NCBI GenBank assembly: GCA_963775755.1
Contig: CAVZKB010000010.1
Location: forward strand, 15,674-79,673
From: an uncultured Actinomycetes bacterium
GTDB taxonomy: Bacteria > Actinomycetota > UBA4738 > HRBIN12
Direction of reading: 5' to 3'
Length of the DNA stretch: 64,000 nucleotides
The stretch's first letter is position 1; the number at the start of each line of letters is the position of its first letter. Below, piece after piece: positions 31,653-49,033 of the stretch. Made by a program: the position numbers and the translations under genes. The notes under the pieces were generated by a model. The model was given only the letters and a program-made list of their open reading frames with translations. It was not told where the DNA came from and searched no databases.

Positions 31653-33163
31653 ATGGAGCGATCGCGAGATGGGCGCGGAACCCTGCTCGTCCTCGCCGGA
31701 GTCATCGTCGGGGTGGCGGGCGTCGCGACGATCGGAGTACATGCGCATTGGTCTCCGGACGGTCGGGCGGCGAGCGACGGGCTGTTGGCAGCCTTCTGCC
31801 TGGCGGCCGGCGCCCTCTGCTTCACCAGGTATCGGAGCACCGGCGACACCCACCCGTTGTTCGTCTGCGCGGGCCTGCTCGCGCTGGCCATGCAGACCAT
31901 CCTCTTCGACCGGCACGCGATCCTGTCGGCGCTCCCCTCCCCGTGGGAAGGGCTCAGCTTCCCCGCCCTGGGCTGGTTCGCGGCATGGCTCGTCGCCGGC
32001 ATCGGATTCGTGCTCGCGCGACCGTGGTGGGACCGGCGGGGACGCAAGCCGCTCCGGGCGCCGCTCGTCCTGAGCGTCGGGTTCGGTCTGCTCCTCGTCA
32101 TCGATCTGATCCTGATCTGGGTCCGGCATTCGCTCCCCCGCGCACGCAACATCGATCTGCGACTCGACGGAGCGTTCTCCCTTACCTCACCACTGCTCTG
32201 GCTCGTTGGAGGAGGATCCATCGCGCTACTCCTCATCGCCGCCTGGCGCGAGTGGACGGCGGGGGGGACGTCCGATCGACGCACCCGTGGCTCGCCGCCG
32301 CCTGGACGATCGCGGCCGCCGGGCAGCTGGTGCTGCTCGCCCGCCCGATCCCCTACCGGCCGTTGCTCCTGCCCGCAGACGCGCTCCTCCCGCTCGCCTC
32401 CGCGCTCGCTCTCCTTGCATTCCTTGCGCCGCAACGCGCCGAGGCCTCCCGGGCACGCCGTGCCACCGACCGGGCCCAGGAGGTCATGGGCGGCAGGGCC
32501 GAGATCGCCGCGATGATCTCGCATGAGGTCCGCGGTCCCGTGAGCACCATCCGCGGGCTCGCGGGGACCGCGCTCTCGCACTACGACCGGCTGACCGACG
32601 ACGAGCGTCGGGAGCTCCTGGATCTCATCCAGCAGGAGTCCGGGCGACTCCTAGCAACGGTGACGCAAGCATCCACCGCGCTCAAGGTCGACGCGGCCAC
32701 GGTCAGCTACGACATCAGGGCGCACGACCTGGGCGCGGCCGTCCGCGAAGGGATCGCCGCCGCCGATGTGGGGGCCCACCGGGTGGACGTCGACCTCGCC
32801 GGAGGCGAGGTCGACGTCGCGTTCGACCTGCGGTGGATCACCGAGGCGGTCCGCCAGTTGGTCGACAACGCCGCGAAGTTCTCGCCTCCGGAGGCCCCGA
32901 TCGTCGTGGCCACGCGGATCGAGAACGGTGGCGCGACGATCGAGGTCGTCGACCGTGGACCCGGCATCCCACCCGAACGCCGCGCCGACGTCTTCGACAA
33001 GTATCCGAATTGGCGACCCGACGGCTACGAGCAGGCACCGGGCTCCGGGCTGGGGCTCTTCCTCGTACGTGGCATCGTCGACGCTCACAAGGGAGAGGTG
33101 GGCATCGTCGACGCCCCCGGTGGGGGTACGATGCTCCGCGTCCGGATCCCCGTGGAGGGCTAG
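31653..33163 (+). CDS. sensor histidine kinase (multi-TM N-terminal sensor + HisKA/HATPase_c), reading frame interrupted at a G7 homopolymer
   Basis: N-terminal membrane domain in frame 0 (31653..32516), kinase core (ISHEVRGP H-box ... GSGLGL) continues in +1 frame to 33163; frames rejoin if the G7 run at 32261-32267 were G8 (EWTAGG|DVRSTHPWLAAAW). Confidence 0.75.
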
Positions 33164-33837
33164 TGGCCGACGGATCGCGCCCCGTGACGCTTCTCATCTG
33201 CGACGACCACCGGGTCCTGACCGATGCGCTCGCCATCGTCGTGGGTCTGGACCCCGGACTCGACCTGGTCGCGCCACCGATGCAGGACCCGCAGTCCGCG
33301 ATCGATCTCTGTGCCGAGCTCCTGCCCGACGTCGTGCTGATGGACGTCGATCTCAAAGCCGAGATGTCGGGGATCGACGCGACCCGCGCCATCAAGGAGA
33401 TCTCGCCCGCGACGAAGGTCATCATCATGACGGCTCACGACAACGATCGATTGCTCGTGGATGCCGTCGAGGCCGGCGCCTCAGGGTTCCTAAGCAAGGA
33501 CGACGCCGCGCAGGAGGTACTCGCCGCGGTGAAAGCCGCGGCGGACGGCGAGGTGCTGATCGAACCGGCGACGCTCGCTCGCCTGCTACCGCAAGTGGCC
33601 CGAGAGCGCGAGGCCCAGCGCGATGCGCTCACCCTGCTCAACGACCTGACGGAACGCGAGCACGAGATCTTGTCTCTGCTCGCGCAAGGCATGCGGAACG
33701 ACGACATCGCGTCGCAGCTGTTCATCAGCCCGCAGACCGTACAGACCCACGTGCGGAACATCCTGGGGAAGCTCCGGGTGCACTCGAAGCTCGAGGCGGT
33801 TGCGTTCGCCGTCCGGCACGGCGCGATCGCCGTCTAG
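33163..33837 (+). CDS. LuxR/NarL-family response regulator
   Basis: GTG at 33163 overlapping kinase stop (TAGTG); REC domain (TLLICDDH..D..MDVDL) + LuxR HTH (LTEREHEILSLLAQGMRNDDIASQLFISPQTVQTH). Confidence 0.85.
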   Translation: MADGSRPVTLLICDDHRVLTDALAIVVGLDPGLDLVAPPMQDPQSAIDLCAELLPDVVLMDVDLKAEMSGIDATRAIKEISPATKVIIMTAHDNDRLLVDAVEAGASGFLSKDDAAQEVLAAVKAAADGEVLIEPATLARLLPQVAREREAQRDALTLLNDLTEREHEILSLLAQGMRNDDIASQLFISPQTVQTHVRNILGKLRVHSKLEAVAFAVRHGAIAV

Positions 33838-34137
33838 CGAGCCGTCGGCCGTCGCACACTTTTTTCCTAGGTCTTTCGGCCCGCCCGGTTGCGACTCCTG
33901 CGCAACCTCGCGTCGCGCCGTGACGGAACCCCGCGCCCGGGCTGCACGCATGGCCACTCCGGCCTGAGTTGCCTCTGCACGCATCCCTCGGCCTACCGCT
34001 GTTGCTGTAGAGCGAAGGGTGCGGCCGCTCCGACATGCCTTGCATTGCACTCAAGAACGTCGGTTCGGCCACCGAAATCAATTCCTGGCCCAAAGCGGGC
34101 GACGGCCGAGGGCCGGGGAAGGTTGAGGAGGACTGGC

Positions 34138-34729
34138 ATGGACAGGATCCACCGCATGAGCCGGGGGCGGAAGACGCTCCTTTCACTGCTGTTGGTCGGC
34201 ACGATCGGAACCGTCGCCGGCATCGGCACGTTCTCCGCGTTCTCGGCGACGACCGAGAACGACGGCAACGTGTTCGCCGCCGGTACCGTGTCGATCTCCG
34301 ACAACGACGCCGGCGCCGCGATGTACACCATCTCGGACGCGACGCCGCTCACCCCGTCGTGAGGTGCATCGAGGTGACGTACACCGGCTCGCTGCCAGCC
34401 GACGTGCATCTGTACAGCTCGGCGATCGGCGCGATCGGACCGTACGTCGACCTCACGATCGACAAGGGCACCGGGACGACCGTGTTCCCGAACTGCGCGG
34501 GCTTCGTTGCCGACGCGAGCCCCAACGTCTACACCGGGACGCTCGGCGCCTTCGCCGCGGCGAGCTCCAACTTCGCGACCGGCGCCCCGGCGTTCCCGGG
34601 CGTGCAGACCGCGTGGAACCAGAACGACGTCGTCGTCTACCGGTTCACGCTGACCTGCAGAACGACCCGGCGGCGGCAGGTCTGACGTCGGGCGTCCACA
34701 GCTTCACATGGGAGGCGCAGAACCAGTAG
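34138..34729 (+). pseudogene. TasA/camelysin-like secreted protein with SipW-cognate signal peptide, paralogue A; two 1-nt deletions relative to paralogues
   Basis: GAGGAGG RBS + ATG 34138; MDRIHRMSRGRKTLLSLLLVGTIGTVAGIGTFSAFSATTENDGNVFAAGTV...; frame changes at C4 run 34352-34355 and at CC 34654-34655; homology to paralogue B continues across both shifts to conserved C-terminus ...SGVHSFTWEAQNQ*. Confidence 0.7.
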
Positions 34730-34747
34730 ATCGCCTCGGCAGGAGTC

Positions 34748-34773
34748 GGGCGGGTCGCGCGAGCGACCCGCCC
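34748..34773 (+). terminator. GC-rich hairpin (11-bp perfect stem GGGCGGGTCGC / GCGACCCGCCC, 4-nt loop) between paralogues A and B; candidate intrinsic terminator/attenuator
   Basis: Perfect inverted repeat 19 nt after stop of paralogue A, 50 nt before RBS of B; no T-tract (common in high-GC actinobacteria). Confidence 0.45.
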
Positions 34774-34822
34774 GAACCCCCCTCGGCCGAACCGGGAGGG
34801 AAGAACTGGAAAGGGAGGGAAC

Positions 34823-35426
34823 ATGAGCAGGATCCATCGCATGAGCCGGGGGCGGAAAGCGCTCCTGTCGCTCCTTCTGGTCGGCGTGATCGGCACCGTC
34901 GCAGGGATCGGGACGTACTCCGCGTTCTCGGCCACGACCGTGAACCCCGGCAACACGTTCGCCGCCGGAACGGTCGTGATCTCGGACAACGACGCGAACG
35001 CCGCGATGTACACCATCGCGAACGCGACACCGACGGTCGCGGTCACACGGTGCATCCGCGTGTCCTACACGGGAACGCTGCCGTCGACGGTCAAGCTCTA
35101 CACCACCACGGCGATCGGCGCGATCGGCCCGTACGTCGACATCGTGATCGACAAGGGCACCATGCCGGTCGGGACGACGTTCCCGAATTGCACCGGGTTC
35201 GTGGCGGACGCCGGCGGCTCCATCTTCACGGGGACGCTCGCGAACTTCGGAACGACCCGGACGAACTTCACGAACGGCGTCCAGGCGTTCCCCGGCGTGC
35301 AGACCGCAGTGGAACCAGAACGACACGCTCGTCTACCGGTTCACGTTGACGCTGCAGAACAACGCGGCGGCGACAGGTCTGACGTCGGGCGTCCACAGCT
35401 TCACGTGGGAGGCACAGAACCAGTAA
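34823..35426 (+). CDS. TasA/camelysin-like secreted protein with SipW-cognate signal peptide, paralogue B; one 1-nt insertion
   Basis: GGGAGGGA RBS; MSRIHRMSRGRKALLSLLLVGVIGTVAGIGTYSAFSATTVNPGNTFAAGTVVISDNDANAAMYTIANATPTVAVTRCIRVSYTG...; frame switches at ~35306-35310 (gcagtgg vs gcgtgg in A) then ...WNQNDTLVYRFTLTLQNNAAATGLTSGVHSFTWEAQNQ* to TAA 35424. Confidence 0.7.
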
Positions 35427-35466
35427 GGGGGTCGGGACCCGGGCGGTCGCGAACGCGACCCGCCCC
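35427..35466 (+). terminator. GC-rich imperfect hairpin after paralogue B (GGGCGGTCGCG aa CGCGACCCGCCC)
   Basis: Inverted repeat homologous to the A-B hairpin, immediately after stop of B. Confidence 0.35.
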
Positions 35467-35485
35467 GGACCACCTCGGGGCGGGC

Positions 35486-35974
35486 ATGTCCGGAAGGGAC
35501 GGGGACCAAGTGGAACGACGAGCGAACACCCATCGCACCGAAGCCCGGATCCGGGTCGTCGGGTTCATGCTCGGCTTGGCGGTCGCAGCCACCGTTGTCG
35601 GCGCATCGAAGATCCCCGCGGGAGCGGGGGCGTTGGGTGCCGACGTCTCGATGGTCGTCGCGCCCACGGGAGAGCTCGCCGTGAAGCAACCCGGAGAGGT
35701 GCTCGAGGGGACGACCCTGACCCCGGCATCCGACCCGGCCAGTGGGCAGTTCACGATCCTTGACCAGACCATGTTCCCGCTCAACGTCCGCGTGCGCGGC
35801 GTCCCGGACCTGCCGGGCCTCAACGGCACGCTGAGGGTGGAACTGACCGGCCCCGACGACGAACAGCTGTTCCGCGGGTCGCTCGCCGACTTCCGCGCTT
35901 GGACCGAAGACCCGGTCACTGCTGAAGCCCGGCGTGTGGAGCACGTTCGGCCTCAAGGCATGGATCCCTGGTGA
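35486..35974 (+). CDS. hypothetical secreted/membrane-anchored protein (N-terminal signal/TM), SipW-locus accessory candidate
   Basis: 162-aa from ATG 35486: MSGRDGDQVERRANTHRTEARIRVVGFMLGLAVAATVVGASKIPAGAGA...; non-repetitive, codon-biased sequence; lacks the AFSATT motif; start uncertain (GTG 35510 alternative). Confidence 0.4.
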   Translation: MSGRDGDQVERRANTHRTEARIRVVGFMLGLAVAATVVGASKIPAGAGALGADVSMVVAPTGELAVKQPGEVLEGTTLTPASDPASGQFTILDQTMFPLNVRVRGVPDLPGLNGTLRVELTGPDDEQLFRGSLADFRAWTEDPVTAEARRVEHVRPQGMDPW

Positions 35975-36046
35975 CGTCGGTGCCGGCTACGTGGGCCGGA
36001 TGGTCCAGGTCGACCTGTGGTTCCGCGTGAGCAAGGCGGGATCGTC

Positions 36047-36632
36047 GTGAACCGCGTGACCCGCCTCCTTGCCGCGTTGATCGCTACCGGGCTGGTCGCG
36101 GTCGCTTCGGGTCGTGCCACGTTCGCCGCGTTCACCTCGACGACGGCGAACCCCGCCAACACCATCGCGTCGGGCACGGTCGTGATCGCCGACAACGACG
36201 CCGGGAACGTGATGTGGAACGTCGACGAACCAGCTCCCGACGTCGCCCGCGGTCGTGCGTTGCATCCGCGTGACGTACAGCGGCACGCTGCCGGCAACCG
36301 TGCGGCTGTACACGACGACCGCGCGCGACGACGCTCGACCCCTACCTCAACGTCACCGTCGAGAAGGGGACGATGCCGGCGGCCACCACGTTCTCGAACT
36401 GCACGGGCTTCGCCGCAGAGGCGACCATCTTCCCGACGGGGACGCTGCAAGCGTTCAAGACCGCCCGGACGGGATGGGCGAACGGTCTCACCGCGTTCCC
36501 GGGAGCGCAAACCGCTTGGAACACCGCCGACTCCTTGGTCTACCGGTTCACCGTTCAGGTGCAGAACGTGTTCGGCGGCCCAAGGCCTGACCGGGCCAGG
36601 TGGGCTTCACATGGGAGGCGCAGAACCAATGA
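36047..36632 (+). pseudogene. TasA/camelysin-like secreted protein with SipW-cognate signal peptide, paralogue C; four 1-nt insertions
   Basis: GTG 36047: MNRVTRLLAALIATGLVAVASGRATFAAFTSTTANPANTIASGTVVIADNDAGNVMWNV...; homology to A/B is followed through frames 2>0>1>2>0 with shifts at CCC 36246-48, gcgcgcg 36321-35, TT 36571-72, CC 36596-97; conserved C-terminus GFTWEAQNQ* with TGA overlapping sipW ATG (ATGA). Confidence 0.65.
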
Positions 36633-37240
36633 AGCGCATCGTGCGATCGGCGGCGCTCCTCCTGGGCTGGATCGCCCTCGGCGCCTTCGGCGGGCTCCTG
36701 CTCGCGGTGGGGCTGCCGAACCTCTTCCACGCGAAGAGCCTCACGGTGATGTCGGGCAGCATGGAACCGACGATCGGCACGGGCGACGTGATCGTGGCGC
36801 AACAGATCTCACCGATGGACGCCCGCGTGGGCGACATCGTCTCGTTCCGAGATCCTCTCGAGCACGATCGCGTGATCACCCATCGGGTGCGCGAGATCCA
36901 CGTGTTGAAGGACAAGGTGGAGTTCGTCACCAAGGGTGACGCGAACACGAACACCGAGCATTGGGCCATCCCCGAGGACGGCACGATCGGACGGGTCGCA
37001 TTCCACGTTCCCCGGCTCGGGTATTTCATGGTCTGGATCCACTCGACGTTGGGACTCCTGCTCCTGATCGTCTTGCCCACGCTCTTGCTCGGAGCGACGG
37101 AGCTCTGGCACATCTGGCGGCCAAGGGGCGCCCACGAGCCCGGCGCCCATCGGAAGACGGACGCTCTGAACGAAGGCGCCTACCGGCCCGGTGAAGGCCG
37201 ACGGGTCGAACGGAGATCTCCCGATGAAGCAGTGGCGTAG
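36629..37240 (+). CDS. sipW: signal peptidase I, SipW/Sec11-type (S26B, archaeal/ER-type)
   Basis: 203-aa; N-terminal TM, catalytic Ser motif SGSMEPTIGTGDVIVAQ, downstream His/Asp region (FVTKGDANTNTEHW), C-terminal second TM (MVWIHSTLGLLLLIVLPTLLLG) = SipW architecture. Confidence 0.85.
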   Translation: MKRIVRSAALLLGWIALGAFGGLLLAVGLPNLFHAKSLTVMSGSMEPTIGTGDVIVAQQISPMDARVGDIVSFRDPLEHDRVITHRVREIHVLKDKVEFVTKGDANTNTEHWAIPEDGTIGRVAFHVPRLGYFMVWIHSTLGLLLLIVLPTLLLGATELWHIWRPRGAHEPGAHRKTDALNEGAYRPGEGRRVERRSPDEAVA

Positions 37241-38187
37241 ACCGTGGCTCGTCCTGCCCGTCGGCATCGGGCTGGTGCTCGGTCTGGGCCGGGGCGCCCT
37301 CGCGGCGTTCTCCGCCACGACCGCAGACGGGGTCAACCAGTTCGTCACGGCGCCGGATTGGGAGCCGCCGCACGTTACGCGGACCGTGATCGCGAAGACC
37401 GTCGGCTACCTGGCCGGCAAGATCCACCAGGGAGGTCAGTTCTACGTCTATGCGCAGATCGACGACGGCGGGAACCCCCCGGCCGGCGTGGGAACCGTGA
37501 CGGCTGACGTGTCGGCCTTCTCGAGCGGAGGAGGAGCGGTGGCGATGAACGCGGGTGCGTTCTCGGCCAGAGGTGTCCCCTACAACTACCGGAGCGCCTC
37601 GCGCACCGCGATCAATCCGATGGCGAACGGAACGCGGACCTATTCGTTCACGATGGCCGACGTCGCGGTCCCTGTGCATTCCCAGACAGAGACGGGATTC
37701 GCGGTGACCATCGACAACACCGTCCCGGCTCCGATGAACATGACATCGGCCAACGGCGCCGGCGGGACGGTCGGACGAGCCGAGCAGGGCGACAGCGTCA
37801 CGTACACGTGGAGTGAGCCCATCGACCCGGAGTCGCTCTTGTCCGGATGGGATGGCGGGTCGCCTACCACCGTCACGGTCAGGATCAAGAACAAGGGTCC
37901 CAACGACAGGCTCTCCATCGAGGGTCCGGCCGGCACCCTGAACTTCGGCTTGGTCGCTCTGCAACAGAACTACTTCCCAGGGGACGCGGGAGTTTACGGA
38001 CTCGGCCATCACGATGATCGGAAACGCCGTCACGATCGTGCTCGGGATCCCGAGTGGTGCTGTCAACACGGTCACAGTAGCCACGCCGACCACATGGCAA
38101 GGCGACAGCGGGGCATACGACGCCTCCGGCAACCCGTGCTCGACAGCAACGATCACCGGCTCGGGCTCGCCCCGGATCGACTTCTAG
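37224..38187 (+). CDS. large (~320 aa) secreted protein with SipW-cognate signal peptide (TapA/TasA-like accessory or second fibre subunit); frame interrupted at G4 run
   Basis: GGAG RBS + ATG 37224: MKQWRRPWLVLPVGIGLVLGLGRGALAAFSATTADGVNQFVTAPDW...; frame 0 to 37980, then -1 frame continues as real-looking sequence (TREFTDSAITMIGNAVTIVLGIPSGAVNTVTVATPTTWQGDSGAYDASGNPCSTATITGSGSPRIDF*) if GGGG 37980-37983 were GGG. Confidence 0.65.
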
Positions 38188-38343
38188 GTAGGAGGTGGAC
38201 GAGAGCTCGGACCTTCGGCCATTACCCCGTTGGGGGTATCAACCTCTACCGGACGATGTGCCGAAAACTCGGATGCGGACGCCTCGGCAGCGGTAGCCGC
38301 ATCGTGGGATCACCACCCCCTCGGTGATCCCCACAAGATCGAA

Positions 38344-38373
38344 GGCCCGAGCCCACCCCTCCCGGGCTCGGGC
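38344..38373. terminator. bidirectional intrinsic terminator hairpin (GGCCCGAGCCC-acccctcc-GGGCTCGGGCC) between convergent SipW-locus and menE
   Basis: 11-bp perfect stem, 8-nt loop, followed by TTCGTCTCTCCCTT on + strand; 18 nt beyond menE stop. Confidence 0.6.
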
Positions 38374-38390
38374 CTTCGTCTCTCCCTTCG

Positions 38391-39602
38391 TCACCGTGGA
38401 AGCGCTCCGCGTCGGATCTTGCCGGACGTCGTCCGGGGGAGCTCCGTCATCGAGACGACGGCCCGCGGGAGCTTGAAGCGCGCGATCCGTTCCGCACCGT
38501 GTTGCCGCAGCTCCTCCAGGGTCGGCGGATCGTCGGCGCTCACCGGCACGACGAACGCCACGACCTGTTGCCCCCACTCCTCGTTCGGCCTCCCCGCCAC
38601 CGCGACCTCCGCGACCTTCGGATGATCCAGGAGCGCGCCCTCGACCTCGTGCGGCCACACCGTCTCGGCCCCCGTCCTGATGGCCTCGTCGGATCGGCCG
38701 TCGATCAGCAGGCGGCCGTCGGGCTCCAGCGCGCCCGTGTCGCCGGTACGGAGCCAGCCATCCAACGTGAACGCGAGCGCCGTTGCGGCCGGGTCGTTGC
38801 GGTAACCCTCCATGATCGTGGGACCGTGCAGTTGGACACCACCGCCCGCGTCGATCCGCGCGCTCGTGTCGTCGAAGAGCCGGCCGTCGTACGCGATGCC
38901 TCCGCACGACTCCGTCAGACCGTATGTCGACACCACGCGGACGCGACGCTCAGCTGCGGCGGCCACCTGGCTGGCGTCCACGGCCGCTCCCCCGATCAAC
39001 ATGATGCCGAACCGTGAGAGGTCCGCGCCCGCCTCGAGCAGACGATGCAGCATGGTCGGCACCAACGCGACGTGCGCGCCCGCCGGCACCTCGCGCAAGT
39101 CGTCGTTCGGGTCGAGGCCGATCCGGTCGAGGACCGTCACCGGCGTGCCGAACACGACGTGACGCATCAGGACGAGCATCCCGCCGACGTGCGCGGGCGA
39201 GAGGCAGCACACCCACGGCTCCGATGGTTCGAGCGCGACGCCGCCCGTCGCGGAGCCGAGCGCGGCGAACGACAGTCCCACCGCCGCCGCGACGGCCGGT
39301 CGCGACAGCTCGACGAGCTTGGGACGGCCCGCCGTGCCGGATGTCGCCACGACGAGCGCGACACGATCGGGCTCGGGCGGGGACGGATCGGCGAACAGCA
39401 TCTCGTCGTCCGCGCTTATGACCGAGGCGGGCCGCGCCAGATCCACGATCGCCCGGCGCTCTCGTTCGGTCAAGCGGGCGTCCAAAGGCAGGATCGCCGC
39501 GCCCTCGGCCCAGAGATCCGCGACCACGTCCAGCCAGACGGGTCCCGGCGGCAGGTCGACCGCGACCAGGAACCCCGGCGCGGCGCCCAGGTAGCGGCTC
39601 AC
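38391..39602 (-). CDS. menE: o-succinylbenzoate--CoA ligase (AMP-dependent synthetase/ligase)
   Basis: 403-aa ANL-superfamily enzyme (TSGTAGRPK, YGLTE, GDTG..DGRL..GRSDE, SGKIRR); divergent neighbour of menB. Confidence 0.7.
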   Translation of the reverse strand: MSRYLGAAPGFLVAVDLPPGPVWLDVVADLWAEGAAILPLDARLTERERRAIVDLARPASVISADDEMLFADPSPPEPDRVALVVATSGTAGRPKLVELSRPAVAAAVGLSFAALGSATGGVALEPSEPWVCCLSPAHVGGMLVLMRHVVFGTPVTVLDRIGLDPNDDLREVPAGAHVALVPTMLHRLLEAGADLSRFGIMLIGGAAVDASQVAAAAERRVRVVSTYGLTESCGGIAYDGRLFDDTSARIDAGGGVQLHGPTIMEGYRNDPAATALAFTLDGWLRTGDTGALEPDGRLLIDGRSDEAIRTGAETVWPHEVEGALLDHPKVAEVAVAGRPNEEWGQQVVAFVVPVSADDPPTLEELRQHGAERIARFKLPRAVVSMTELPRTTSGKIRRGALPR

Positions 39603-47777: not shown

Positions 47778-49033
47778 TCAGCCCCAGCGCAGCGAGTCCA
47801 GGAACGCGCGGAACTTGCGCTCGGTCTCGTCGAGCTCGGCGGCGGGATCCGAGTCCGCGACGATCCCCGCGCCGGCGAACAGGCGAGCGGTGCTGCCGTC
47901 GAGCTCCGCGCATCGGAGCGCGAGCGCCCACACCCCGTCTCCCGTAGCGTCCATCCACCCGACCGCTCCGGCGTAGGCGCCGCGAGGGACGGGCTCGAGC
48001 TCCCTGATCGTTCCCATCGCCTCGTCACGCGGCTCACCGCAGACCGCCGGCGTCGGGTGGAGCGCGCGCACCAGATCGAGCGCGGTGACGCCCGGGTCCT
48101 TCAACACCCCGCGGAACCGCGTCGACAGGTGCCACACGTTCGCCGTGGCCAGGAGTTGCGGCTCCCGGTCGTAGGTGAGATCCCGGCAGAGCGGGTGCAA
48201 CGCTCGGAACACGTCCTCGACGACGATCGCATGCTCCTGCCGGTCCTTGGGCGAGGTGCCCAGCCGCTCCGCGTTCTCGCGATCTTCCGCAGGATCGCCG
48301 GCGCGGGGCGCGGAACCCGCAAGCGGATTCGTCCGGATCTCGTTGCCGAACCGCGAGATCAGGAGCTCGGGACTCGCGCCGACAAGCGTCCTTCCCTTCC
48401 CCGTGTCGACCGCGAACGAGTACCCGTCGGGCTCGACCGCTCGCAGGTGCTTGAGTAGCTCACGCGGATCCAGCGTGCGACCGGCCTCGACACGGATCGT
48501 CCGTGCCAGGACGACCTTGCGGAGCATCCCGCGCCGGATCCGGCCGACCGCCTCGCCGACCGCTCGTTCGTACGCATCCGGAAGTGGCTCGGGGAACACC
48601 TGCATCTTCGAGAACGGAGCGTTGGGCTCGCTTCGCCCACGGGTCGGCTCCGGCATGGCGACGTCCCCCGGCTCATCGTCCAGCCGGAGCAACCAGGTTT
48701 CCCCTGCCGGTCGCGACGCACCGTCCGCCGAGGGTGCGCGAAGTGGCCGCTCCTGTGGGGATCGAACGGGATCGATCCGAACAGCAGCGGAGCGGGAGCA
48801 TCCGGTGGCAGCGCCCCGATGTCGAGCCCGCTGAAGAGCATCTCGAGCGTCGGCGGACGCAGCCCCATCTGAGGGCCGGAGAGCGTCATCACCCACGGAT
48901 CTCCTCCTCCGGCGCTGCCGGCGACGCCGATCCCCGCGCGTTCCATGAAGCAGCCACCAGGCGCATACGCGGCCAGCAGATCGAACGCTGGACCGAGGCG
49001 CTCCGCGCGCACGACCGCACGGGTCGCCGTCAC
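47778..49033 (-). CDS. menF: isochorismate synthase, frame interrupted at a C4/G4 homopolymer
   Basis: C-terminal chorismate-binding domain in ORF 47778..48896 (...AVCGEPRDEA...GAYAGAVGW...GAGIVADSDPAAE); N-terminal part (LLAAYAPGGCFMERAGIGVAGSAGGGDPWVM...LLFGSIPFDPHRSGHF...RTVRRDRQG) in another frame from GTG ~49033; frames join as RDRQG|ETWLLRL if cccc 48701-48704 (+ strand) were ccccc. Confidence 0.7.

Follow-up and report, generated by a model that had tools for sequence, protein, structure and literature searches.

Frame breaks in a TasA/SipW-type operon of an uncultured actinobacterial lineage as probable consensus artefacts at a hypervariable locus

The closest described counterpart of the locus studied here is the tapA-sipW-tasA operon of Bacillus subtilis (Peptidase_M73, PF12389), in which fibre-subunit-like secreted proteins likewise adjoin a SipW-type signal peptidase. 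Several differences separate the two. The window, by which we mean the whole 64,000-nt stretch of DNA that was analysed, contains three paralogous subunits and two uncharacterised accessory genes (D and E). Its host belongs to an uncultured high-GC actinobacterial lineage, and fibre formation is predicted only. Two further systems resemble the locus in the way its genes are interrupted. Contingency loci share with it the presence of frameshifts in surface-structure genes. The errors that metaFlye and Medaka make under strain heterogeneity share with it single-base indels that fragment genes and cluster where co-occurring strains differ, and serious metaFlye polishing errors of this origin are on record (PMC12424758).

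The operon itself is genuine and of the TasA/SipW type. On the forward strand, it is arranged in the order sensor kinase, response regulator, A, B, D, C, SipW and E. The sensor histidine kinase gene (31653..33163) lies upstream and is frameshifted at a G7 run (32261-32267), while the response regulator (Response_reg and GerE, 33160..33837) is intact according to the ORF list and the Pfam marks on its orthologue in the conspecific contig L083. The TasA-like paralogue A (34138..34729) encodes 197 aa when two missing bases are put back, as traced by translation, the frame tracer and tblastn. Paralogues B (34823..35426) and C (36047..36632) encode 200 and 193 aa without one extra A and four extra bases, respectively, and none of the three corrected proteins contains an internal stop. 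Between B and C lies gene D (35510..36050, alternative start 35486), whose corrected product is a conserved accessory protein of 179 aa. The intact gene of the SipW-type signal peptidase (36629..37240, 203 aa) begins with a start codon that overlaps the stop codon of C. It is followed by gene E (37224..38187, alternative start 37191), which encodes 320 aa once corrected and carries at its N-terminus an AAFSATT motif common to A and B. Codon bias is kept in the corrected reading frames. Beyond the operon, an intact AMP-binding acyl-CoA synthetase gene occupies the reverse strand (38391..39602).

The signal peptidase scores 96.9 bits against TIGR02228 (cut-off 51.85) and matches PF10502, in line with an archaeal/ER-type signal peptidase I of the SipW type; against the Bacillus SipW equivalog it reaches 86.9 bits, below the cut-off of 190. 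Its exact protein is present in a public collection. For the subunits, the intact database homologues of corrected B include two proteins of 200 aa (94% and 90% identity) and one of 194 aa (90% identity), and homologues at 56-71% identity are named 'TasA family' or marked PF12389 in precomputed annotation. Corrected B itself has no PF12389 match at E <= 0.01 in Pfam. No Pfam family was found for B, D or E, and no NCBIfam match for corrected A-E. AlphaFold2 models corrected B at a mean pLDDT of 72, with a core above 80. When this model is compared with the PDB by Foldseek, the TasA fibre 8AUR_A ranks first (E = 2.3e-4, probability 1.00, TM 0.47), ahead of donor-strand pilins. With moderate confidence, corrected B is predicted to adopt a TasA-like fold.

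Nine frame-breaking indels interrupt the operon, seven in A, B and C and one each in D and E. All are 1 nt in size, and 7/9 are insertions. A first-pass annotation made from the window alone had described two deletions in A, one insertion in B and four insertions in C, and three-frame translation together with the frame tracer bears this out. A is read in frames 0, 2 and 1, B in 0 and 1, and C in 2, 0, 1, 2 and 0. As described, each of the three returns to the same C-terminal end, FTWEAQNQ*, after its shifts are summed. The breaks in D and E are absent from that annotation.

In A, one base is lost between CTC and ACCCC (34350..34351; alignments to L001, L002, L007 and L088), where orthologues read CTC/CTG-AAC-CCC and L088 reads CTCGACCCC. 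At the second deletion (34654..34655, within ACC/CTG), a Thr codon (ACN) lacks its third base, in a column that varies A/G/C among orthologues; both deleted columns are polymorphic among alleles. B carries an extra A at 35308 (GC[A]GTGG), at a site that reads GCG-TGG in most alleles and GCA-TGG in L088, and the window contains both bases. The extra C in D (35917, GGT[C]ACT) faces a gap in a contig with the same allele, L080, and a C/G variant is found at the adjoining column. C contains an extra G at 36224 (GTC[G]ACG; codon GTC in L080, GTG in other alleles), an extra C at 36324 (GCG[C]GCG; a gap against L080, with C seen as a variant in the most divergent allele alone), an extra C at 36573 (GTT[C]GGC; TTG in L080, TTC in other alleles) and an extra A at 36590 (CTG[A]CCG; CTG-CCG in L080, CTG-ACG in other alleles). 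In E, a G4 run (37980..37983) stands where protein alignment to intact orthologues in L003, L081 and L082 leads us to expect G3, and this is the only insertion that lengthens a homopolymer. Four of the nine sites (those in A and B and the 3' site in E) were judged from orthologues 79-94% identical, and the other five from L080.

Three of the positions given in the first-pass annotation, all in C, were wrong by 2-25 nt: the first shift of C had been placed at CCC 36246-48 instead of 36224, and its last two at TT 36571-72 and CC 36596-97 instead of 36573 and 36590. The description of the breaks as lying at short homopolymers also needs revision. The extra bases in B and C are unlike both of their neighbours, which leaves the deletions in A (34350/51 beside A and C4; 34654/55) as the only breaks in the three paralogues that could be homopolymer-related.

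The nine indels all fall within a hypervariable allele block of 5.75 kb (33700..39450, about 33.7-39.45 kb), which was delimited by the identities of 500-nt tiles and by bins of indels and substitutions against L081 and L083, and which includes most of the acyl-CoA synthetase gene. The conspecific 1.35-Mb contig (L081/L083) is 99.2-100% identical to the window in the flanks and 72-80% within the block. Against this contig, the window has 0 indels between 15,573 and 33,500 and 1 between 39,450 and 55,588, a missing T that breaks a chorismate-binding-domain gene on the reverse strand (48701..48702). The local excess of indels noted earlier is upheld. The codon-usage frame tracer places 9 indels in 34.35-37.98 kb and 2 candidates in the other 58 kb, so that 9/11 frame breaks lie within 9% of the window (binomial P for at least 9/11 in the block = 1.8e-8); the automatic frame-switch counter, which gives false positives at 37183 and 43128 and misses quickly-stopped shifts (34355, 34651), serves as a relative control only.

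The first-pass annotation had proposed a look at orthologous loci, and the conspecific assembly indeed retains the three-paralogue layout with all six operon genes intact. Other orthologues of the operon genes are intact, or broken at other positions. Alleles of the operon are shared across species, and those of the window are nearer to those of other species than to those of the conspecific. Independently of the indels, the locus may be a hypervariable cassette for surface fibres that passes its alleles between species of uncultured soil actinobacteria. A 24-nt allele-specific exact pattern had no match in JGI metagenomes, and a protein-seeded scan found alleles at 86-92% identity only. Of the corrected proteins, C alone has an exact match in the protein collection, on L080; A, B, D, E and the kinase have none.

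The same allele is found independently on L080, a contig that comes from the Logan assembly of run SRR28023676. L080 is 99.4% identical to window positions 35904-37878, and it carries an intact C and a D that stays in frame at its 3' end; the corrected C protein is identical to the product that L080 encodes. Over positions 35904-36632 (729 nt), the window has five extra bases and 0 substitutions relative to L080, in contrast to 7 substitutions and 0 indels over the next 1246 nt (Fisher P = 0.0013). At 5/5 of the sites covered by L080, the inserted base equals the variant of other alleles at the adjoining column (null 0.25; P = 0.0009), and with the four close alleles only, this is the case at 4/5 (P = 0.002). 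The window reads as though both SNP alleles had been written in tandem, and the extra A in B, with its GCG and GCA alleles, fits the same pattern.

The frame breaks are best explained as an artefact of consensus building or polishing, made where strains differ at a hypervariable fibre locus, to which we give a probability of roughly 0.87 from the pattern of the letters and their comparison with other assemblies. Within the block, reads of several haplotypes, or of one thinly covered haplotype, would have been merged. At columns with a substitution between haplotypes, both bases may have entered the consensus, which would give the +1 insertions at six sites, or both may have been dropped, which would give a -1 deletion, as is probable for both sites in A. 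We infer that mixed reads are the direct cause, and that the window comes from a long-read metagenome assembly, probably a nanopore one made with Flye/Medaka. Among the options raised in the first-pass annotation, an artefact is the best supported as a class, and it is the proposed origin in paralogue repeats that does not stand. A mixture of strains or alleles is favoured over repeat collapse because D and E are hit too and the paralogues are only 65-80% identical.

Among relatives, though not necessarily for the window itself, frameshifts are associated with the sequencing platform. Among GTDB relatives, frameshifted TasA-like genes were found for 11/67 in nanopore-only Microflora Danica MAGs and for 0/69 in MAGs of a short-read class that was assigned by the look of the contig names (Fisher P = 2.6e-4). 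The Microflora Danica MAGs were built with Flye and one round of Medaka (PMC12313526), and the break sites in the frameshifted relatives differ from MAG to MAG. As expected of long-read consensus errors, none are found in the short-read-style relatives or in the independent copy of the same allele. The locus departs from the usual long-read errors in homopolymer length, in that most of its indels are non-homopolymer +1 insertions resembling tandem SNP alleles. Many of the nanopore relatives have 0.29-0.36 frame-switch candidates per kb, both within and outside their TasA-like genes. A generally noisy assembly was considered as a cause for the window and rejected, with 0-1 indels in 34 kb of flanks. 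Outside the block the window is very clean, unlike many of these noisy relatives, and the error must therefore be strictly local.

Genuine decay, also raised in the first-pass annotation, would mean that the strain carries a dead, multiply frameshifted fibre operon with pseudogenes at A, B, D, C and E. We consider this unlikely, although the deposited sequence does contain the indels, the contig otherwise looks accurate when set against the conspecific, and the upstream sensor kinase is frameshifted as well, in two assemblies. Four breaks in one 585-nt gene are not selectable, and the time needed to accumulate them would leave substitutions, of which there are none beside the five insertions relative to L080. 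Pseudogenes in bacteria are biased towards deletions, with indels of varied length, whereas the indels here are uniformly of one nucleotide and mostly insertions. The inserted bases also equal variants of other alleles, and SipW, the response regulator and the stop-free corrected frames argue against a dead operon. A related reading takes the indels to be real and situated at allele-polymorphic columns, for example through faulty heteroduplex repair during recombination between divergent alleles, which could silence the operon in one step; we hold this to be highly improbable.

It is very doubtful that the breaks arose by cross-mapping between the paralogues, that is, by mis-polishing or collapse among A, B and C. 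Such an origin would account for the position of 7/9 indels in paralogous genes with common conserved N- and C-terminal motifs. However, the paralogues are not near-identical, as had been supposed: A and B share 79.9% identity, and C shares about 65% with each of them. With a longest exact stretch of 31 nt, they are too divergent for kilobase reads to be mixed up. The unique genes D and E are affected too, the extra base of B is absent from both other copies, and A, B and C diverge at the last two sites of C. The conspecific, which has the same layout, shows no such breaks.

Phase variation of the fibre genes by strand slippage, or their programmed frameshifting, is the least credible reading and extremely improbable. 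In its favour, surface-fibre genes are classic phase-variable targets and the upstream kinase is interrupted at a G7 run. The nine sites, however, unlike contingency loci, contain no hypermutable tract (longest runs G4 and C4, six sites non-repeat), vary by assembly with no tract that differs in length between strains, and stack several shifts per gene that could not act as a switch, while a programmed mechanism finds no conserved site and meets intact orthologues.

Under the preferred explanation of a consensus artefact, the frameshifts are most likely biologically meaningless, and we advise annotation as an intact operon with the corrected lengths (A 197 aa, B 200, D 179, C 193, SipW 203 and E 320). 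What lies beneath as real biology is a cassette for TasA/SipW fibres that is hypervariable between strains of this uncultured actinobacterial lineage, and it is of moderate interest. The case illustrates that an otherwise clean MAG contig can hold dense local gene-breaking errors at strain-variable loci such as those for surface structures, and that comparative studies are most apt to take genes of exactly this kind for pseudogenes, 'lost functions' or phase-variable genes. The tandem-SNP signature, in which the inserted base is the base of the other allele, provides a simple read-free test for consensus failure.

The upstream sensor kinase, whose G7 is the only run of at least 7 in or beside the locus, would be restored to 503 aa by G8 at this position. 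Its sequence is identical in the conspecific L083, and L007, L002 and L004 carry an in-frame copy.

Single-base frame changes interrupt five genes of the TasA-like operon. Uninterrupted proteins are obtained once single bases are removed or added: paralogue A (34138-34729) then encodes 197 aa, paralogue B (34823-35426) 200 aa, gene D between B and C (35510-36050) 179 aa, paralogue C (36047-36632) 193 aa, and gene E, which follows the signal peptidase gene (37224-38187), 320 aa. The C-terminus FTWEAQNQ* is shared by A, B and C (region 34.1-38.2 kb; GC content of the window, 68%). Corrected B has intact database homologues of 200 aa at 94% and 90% identity and of 194 aa at 90%. Because the corrected genes are uninterrupted and corrected B has intact homologues, the frame disruptions are really present in the sequence.

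The events were placed using orthologue alignments and a contig of the same allele, L080, which covers five of the nine sites, the remaining four resting on the orthologues. A lacks a base at 34350/51 and another at 34654/55. B contains an extra A at 35308 and D an extra C at 35917. In C we find an extra G at 36224, an extra C at both 36324 and 36573, and an extra A at 36590, while E carries an extra G in the G run at 37980-83. The first-pass annotation had described two 1-nt deletions in A, one insertion in B and four in C, and these are borne out by three-frame translation and nucleotide alignment. Frame tracing by codon usage, with the window's long genes as the training set, also recovered each of them and added the breaks in D (~35917) and E (~37997). 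Of the seven positions originally proposed, those at 36246-48, 36571-72 and 36596-97 were off by 2-25 nt. The breaks had been ascribed to short homopolymers, yet in six of the seven insertions the extra base differs from both of its neighbours, and these are therefore not homopolymer events.

L080 is a 1970-nt contig from the Logan assembly of an independent run, SRR28023676. It is identical to window 35904-37878 at 1963 of 1975 positions, and its five gaps correspond to the extra bases that the window has in D and C. L080 carries an intact C (193 aa), and its D is in frame at the 3' end. No substitution occurs within the 729 nt holding the five insertions, whereas the following 1246 nt show seven substitutions and no indels (Fisher P = 0.0013). 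Genuine decay of the locus, the most probable of the alternatives though an improbable one, is disfavoured by this distribution: natural decay would not plausibly produce five indels, with four in a single gene that was already dead, and no substitution at all.

The identity of the extra bases is informative. At all five sites covered by L080, the inserted base matches the base of other alleles at the adjoining column (null 0.25, P = 0.0009); with the four close alleles only, the match is 4/5 (P = 0.002). For example, GTC in L080 and GTG in the others becomes GTCG in the window, TTG and TTC become TTCG, and CTG-C and CTG-A become CTG-AC. The extra A of B follows the same pattern, with GCG in most alleles, GCA in a further allele from a metagenome scan (L088) and GCAG in the window. 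In A, the two columns with a missing base vary between alleles. The pattern has the appearance of a consensus of merged two-haplotype reads, in which a substitution ended up as both bases or as neither.

We consider it close to nine in ten that the frame breaks arose locally, as a consensus or polishing artefact at a hypervariable locus that differs between strains. The window would derive from a long-read metagenome assembly in which reads of two haplotypes were merged and substitutions were written as both bases or neither, with mixed or thin read support as the probable cause of error. An artefact had been among the options offered by the first-pass annotation, but for a reason that fails, namely that the paralogues are near-identical. 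A, B and C are 65-80% identical, and no exact match between them exceeds 31 bases, which leaves cross-mapping between paralogues a slim prospect. Phase variation or programmed frameshifting is slimmer still, as no tract at the nine sites exceeds 4 nt, their positions are not conserved, and a gene with several shifts could not work as a switch. The frame-break feature is most probably not biological. In practice, the pattern can serve as a reference-free diagnostic for MAG errors of this class.

Comparison with a 1.35-Mb contig of the same species, found through exact-protein look-ups and compared as pieces L081 and L083, delimits the affected region. Identity is 99.2-100% over window 15.6-33.5 kb, without indels, and over 39.45-55.6 kb, with one indel at 48701, and drops to 72-80% over ~33.7-39.45 kb. 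None of the six operon genes is broken in the conspecific contig. Against MAGs of other species, identity is 90-93% in the TasA part (34.0-37.0 kb) but only 80-90% in its flanks. Because the TasA part is closer than its flanks to other species and the block is diverged from the conspecific, 33.7-39.45 kb is a hypervariable cassette with alleles common to several lineages. The identity pattern points to allele exchange, or to balanced alleles of long standing, at a surface-fibre locus. The block (33700-39450) also includes most of one AMP-binding acyl-CoA synthetase gene. It contains all nine operon frame breaks, and 9 of the 11 frame-break events of the window fall within 9% of its length (P = 1.8e-8). 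The indel at 48701-48702, the sole one in 34 kb of flank, is a missing T that breaks a chorismate-binding-domain gene on the minus strand and is probably a stray assembly error. The genes around it match Pfam ECH, UbiA, TPP_enzyme and Ubie_methyltran and together may form a menaquinone cluster.

A scan of GTDB species representatives yielded 78 loci with the TasA-like family. Frameshifts affect 11 of 67 TasA-like genes in nanopore-only Microflora Danica MAGs versus 0 of 69 in MAGs with short-read-style contig names (Fisher P = 2.6e-4; classes follow contig naming, and the window's platform is inferred). Break sites differ from MAG to MAG. The Microflora Danica MAGs were produced with Flye and one Medaka round (PMC12313526), and serious polishing errors of metaFlye under strain heterogeneity are on record (PMC12424758). 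Frame-switch candidates occur at 0.29-0.36 per kb in nanopore loci and at 0.04-0.05 per kb, about the background of the method, in short-read-style loci; the spread between MAGs is wide (0 to 25 per 20 kb, loci L002-L079). Since the nanopore rate is alike inside and outside TasA-like genes, errors are general in the relatives, whereas they are strictly local in the window.

Upstream of the operon genes lie a sensor kinase and a response regulator. Within the kinase gene (31653-33163) the reading frame shifts at a G7 run (32261-32267), and G8 would give a 503-aa protein. The conspecific assembly (L083) has the identical sequence, whereas the gene is in frame in three relatives (L007, L002 and L004). 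Either the length of the run was systematically under-called, or the frameshift is real, and possibly switchable, in what is likely the regulator of the operon. Just three runs of at least 7 nt occur in the 64-kb window (27409, 32261 and 60204), this one among them, all of exactly 7. This profile is compatible with, not proof of, long-read origin and run-length compression of long homopolymers.

An archaeal/SipW-type signal peptidase I is the product of the gene after C, which matches TIGR02228 (96.9 bits, cut-off 51.85) and PF10502. For homologues of A, B and C, the database annotations read PF12389 (camelysin), "TasA family" or "SipW-like signal peptide"; the window's own proteins stay below Pfam and NCBIfam thresholds. 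For corrected B, an AlphaFold2 model (mean pLDDT 72, core >80) matched the TasA fibre 8AUR best among PDB structures (E 2.3e-4, TM 0.47), with donor-strand pilins next. Predicted fold and gene context, rather than strict profile membership, make "TasA-like operon" a reasonable name. D and E are conserved operon genes with no Pfam or NCBIfam match. The N-terminal AAFSATT motif is common to E, A and B, and from this shared signal-peptide motif E may be a further SipW substrate, perhaps a TapA-like accessory or minor subunit. Relatives differ in how many TasA-like paralogues they have: three are present in the window, L001, L002 and L081, versus four in L004 (8624-11798), where the fourth is an extra B-like copy.
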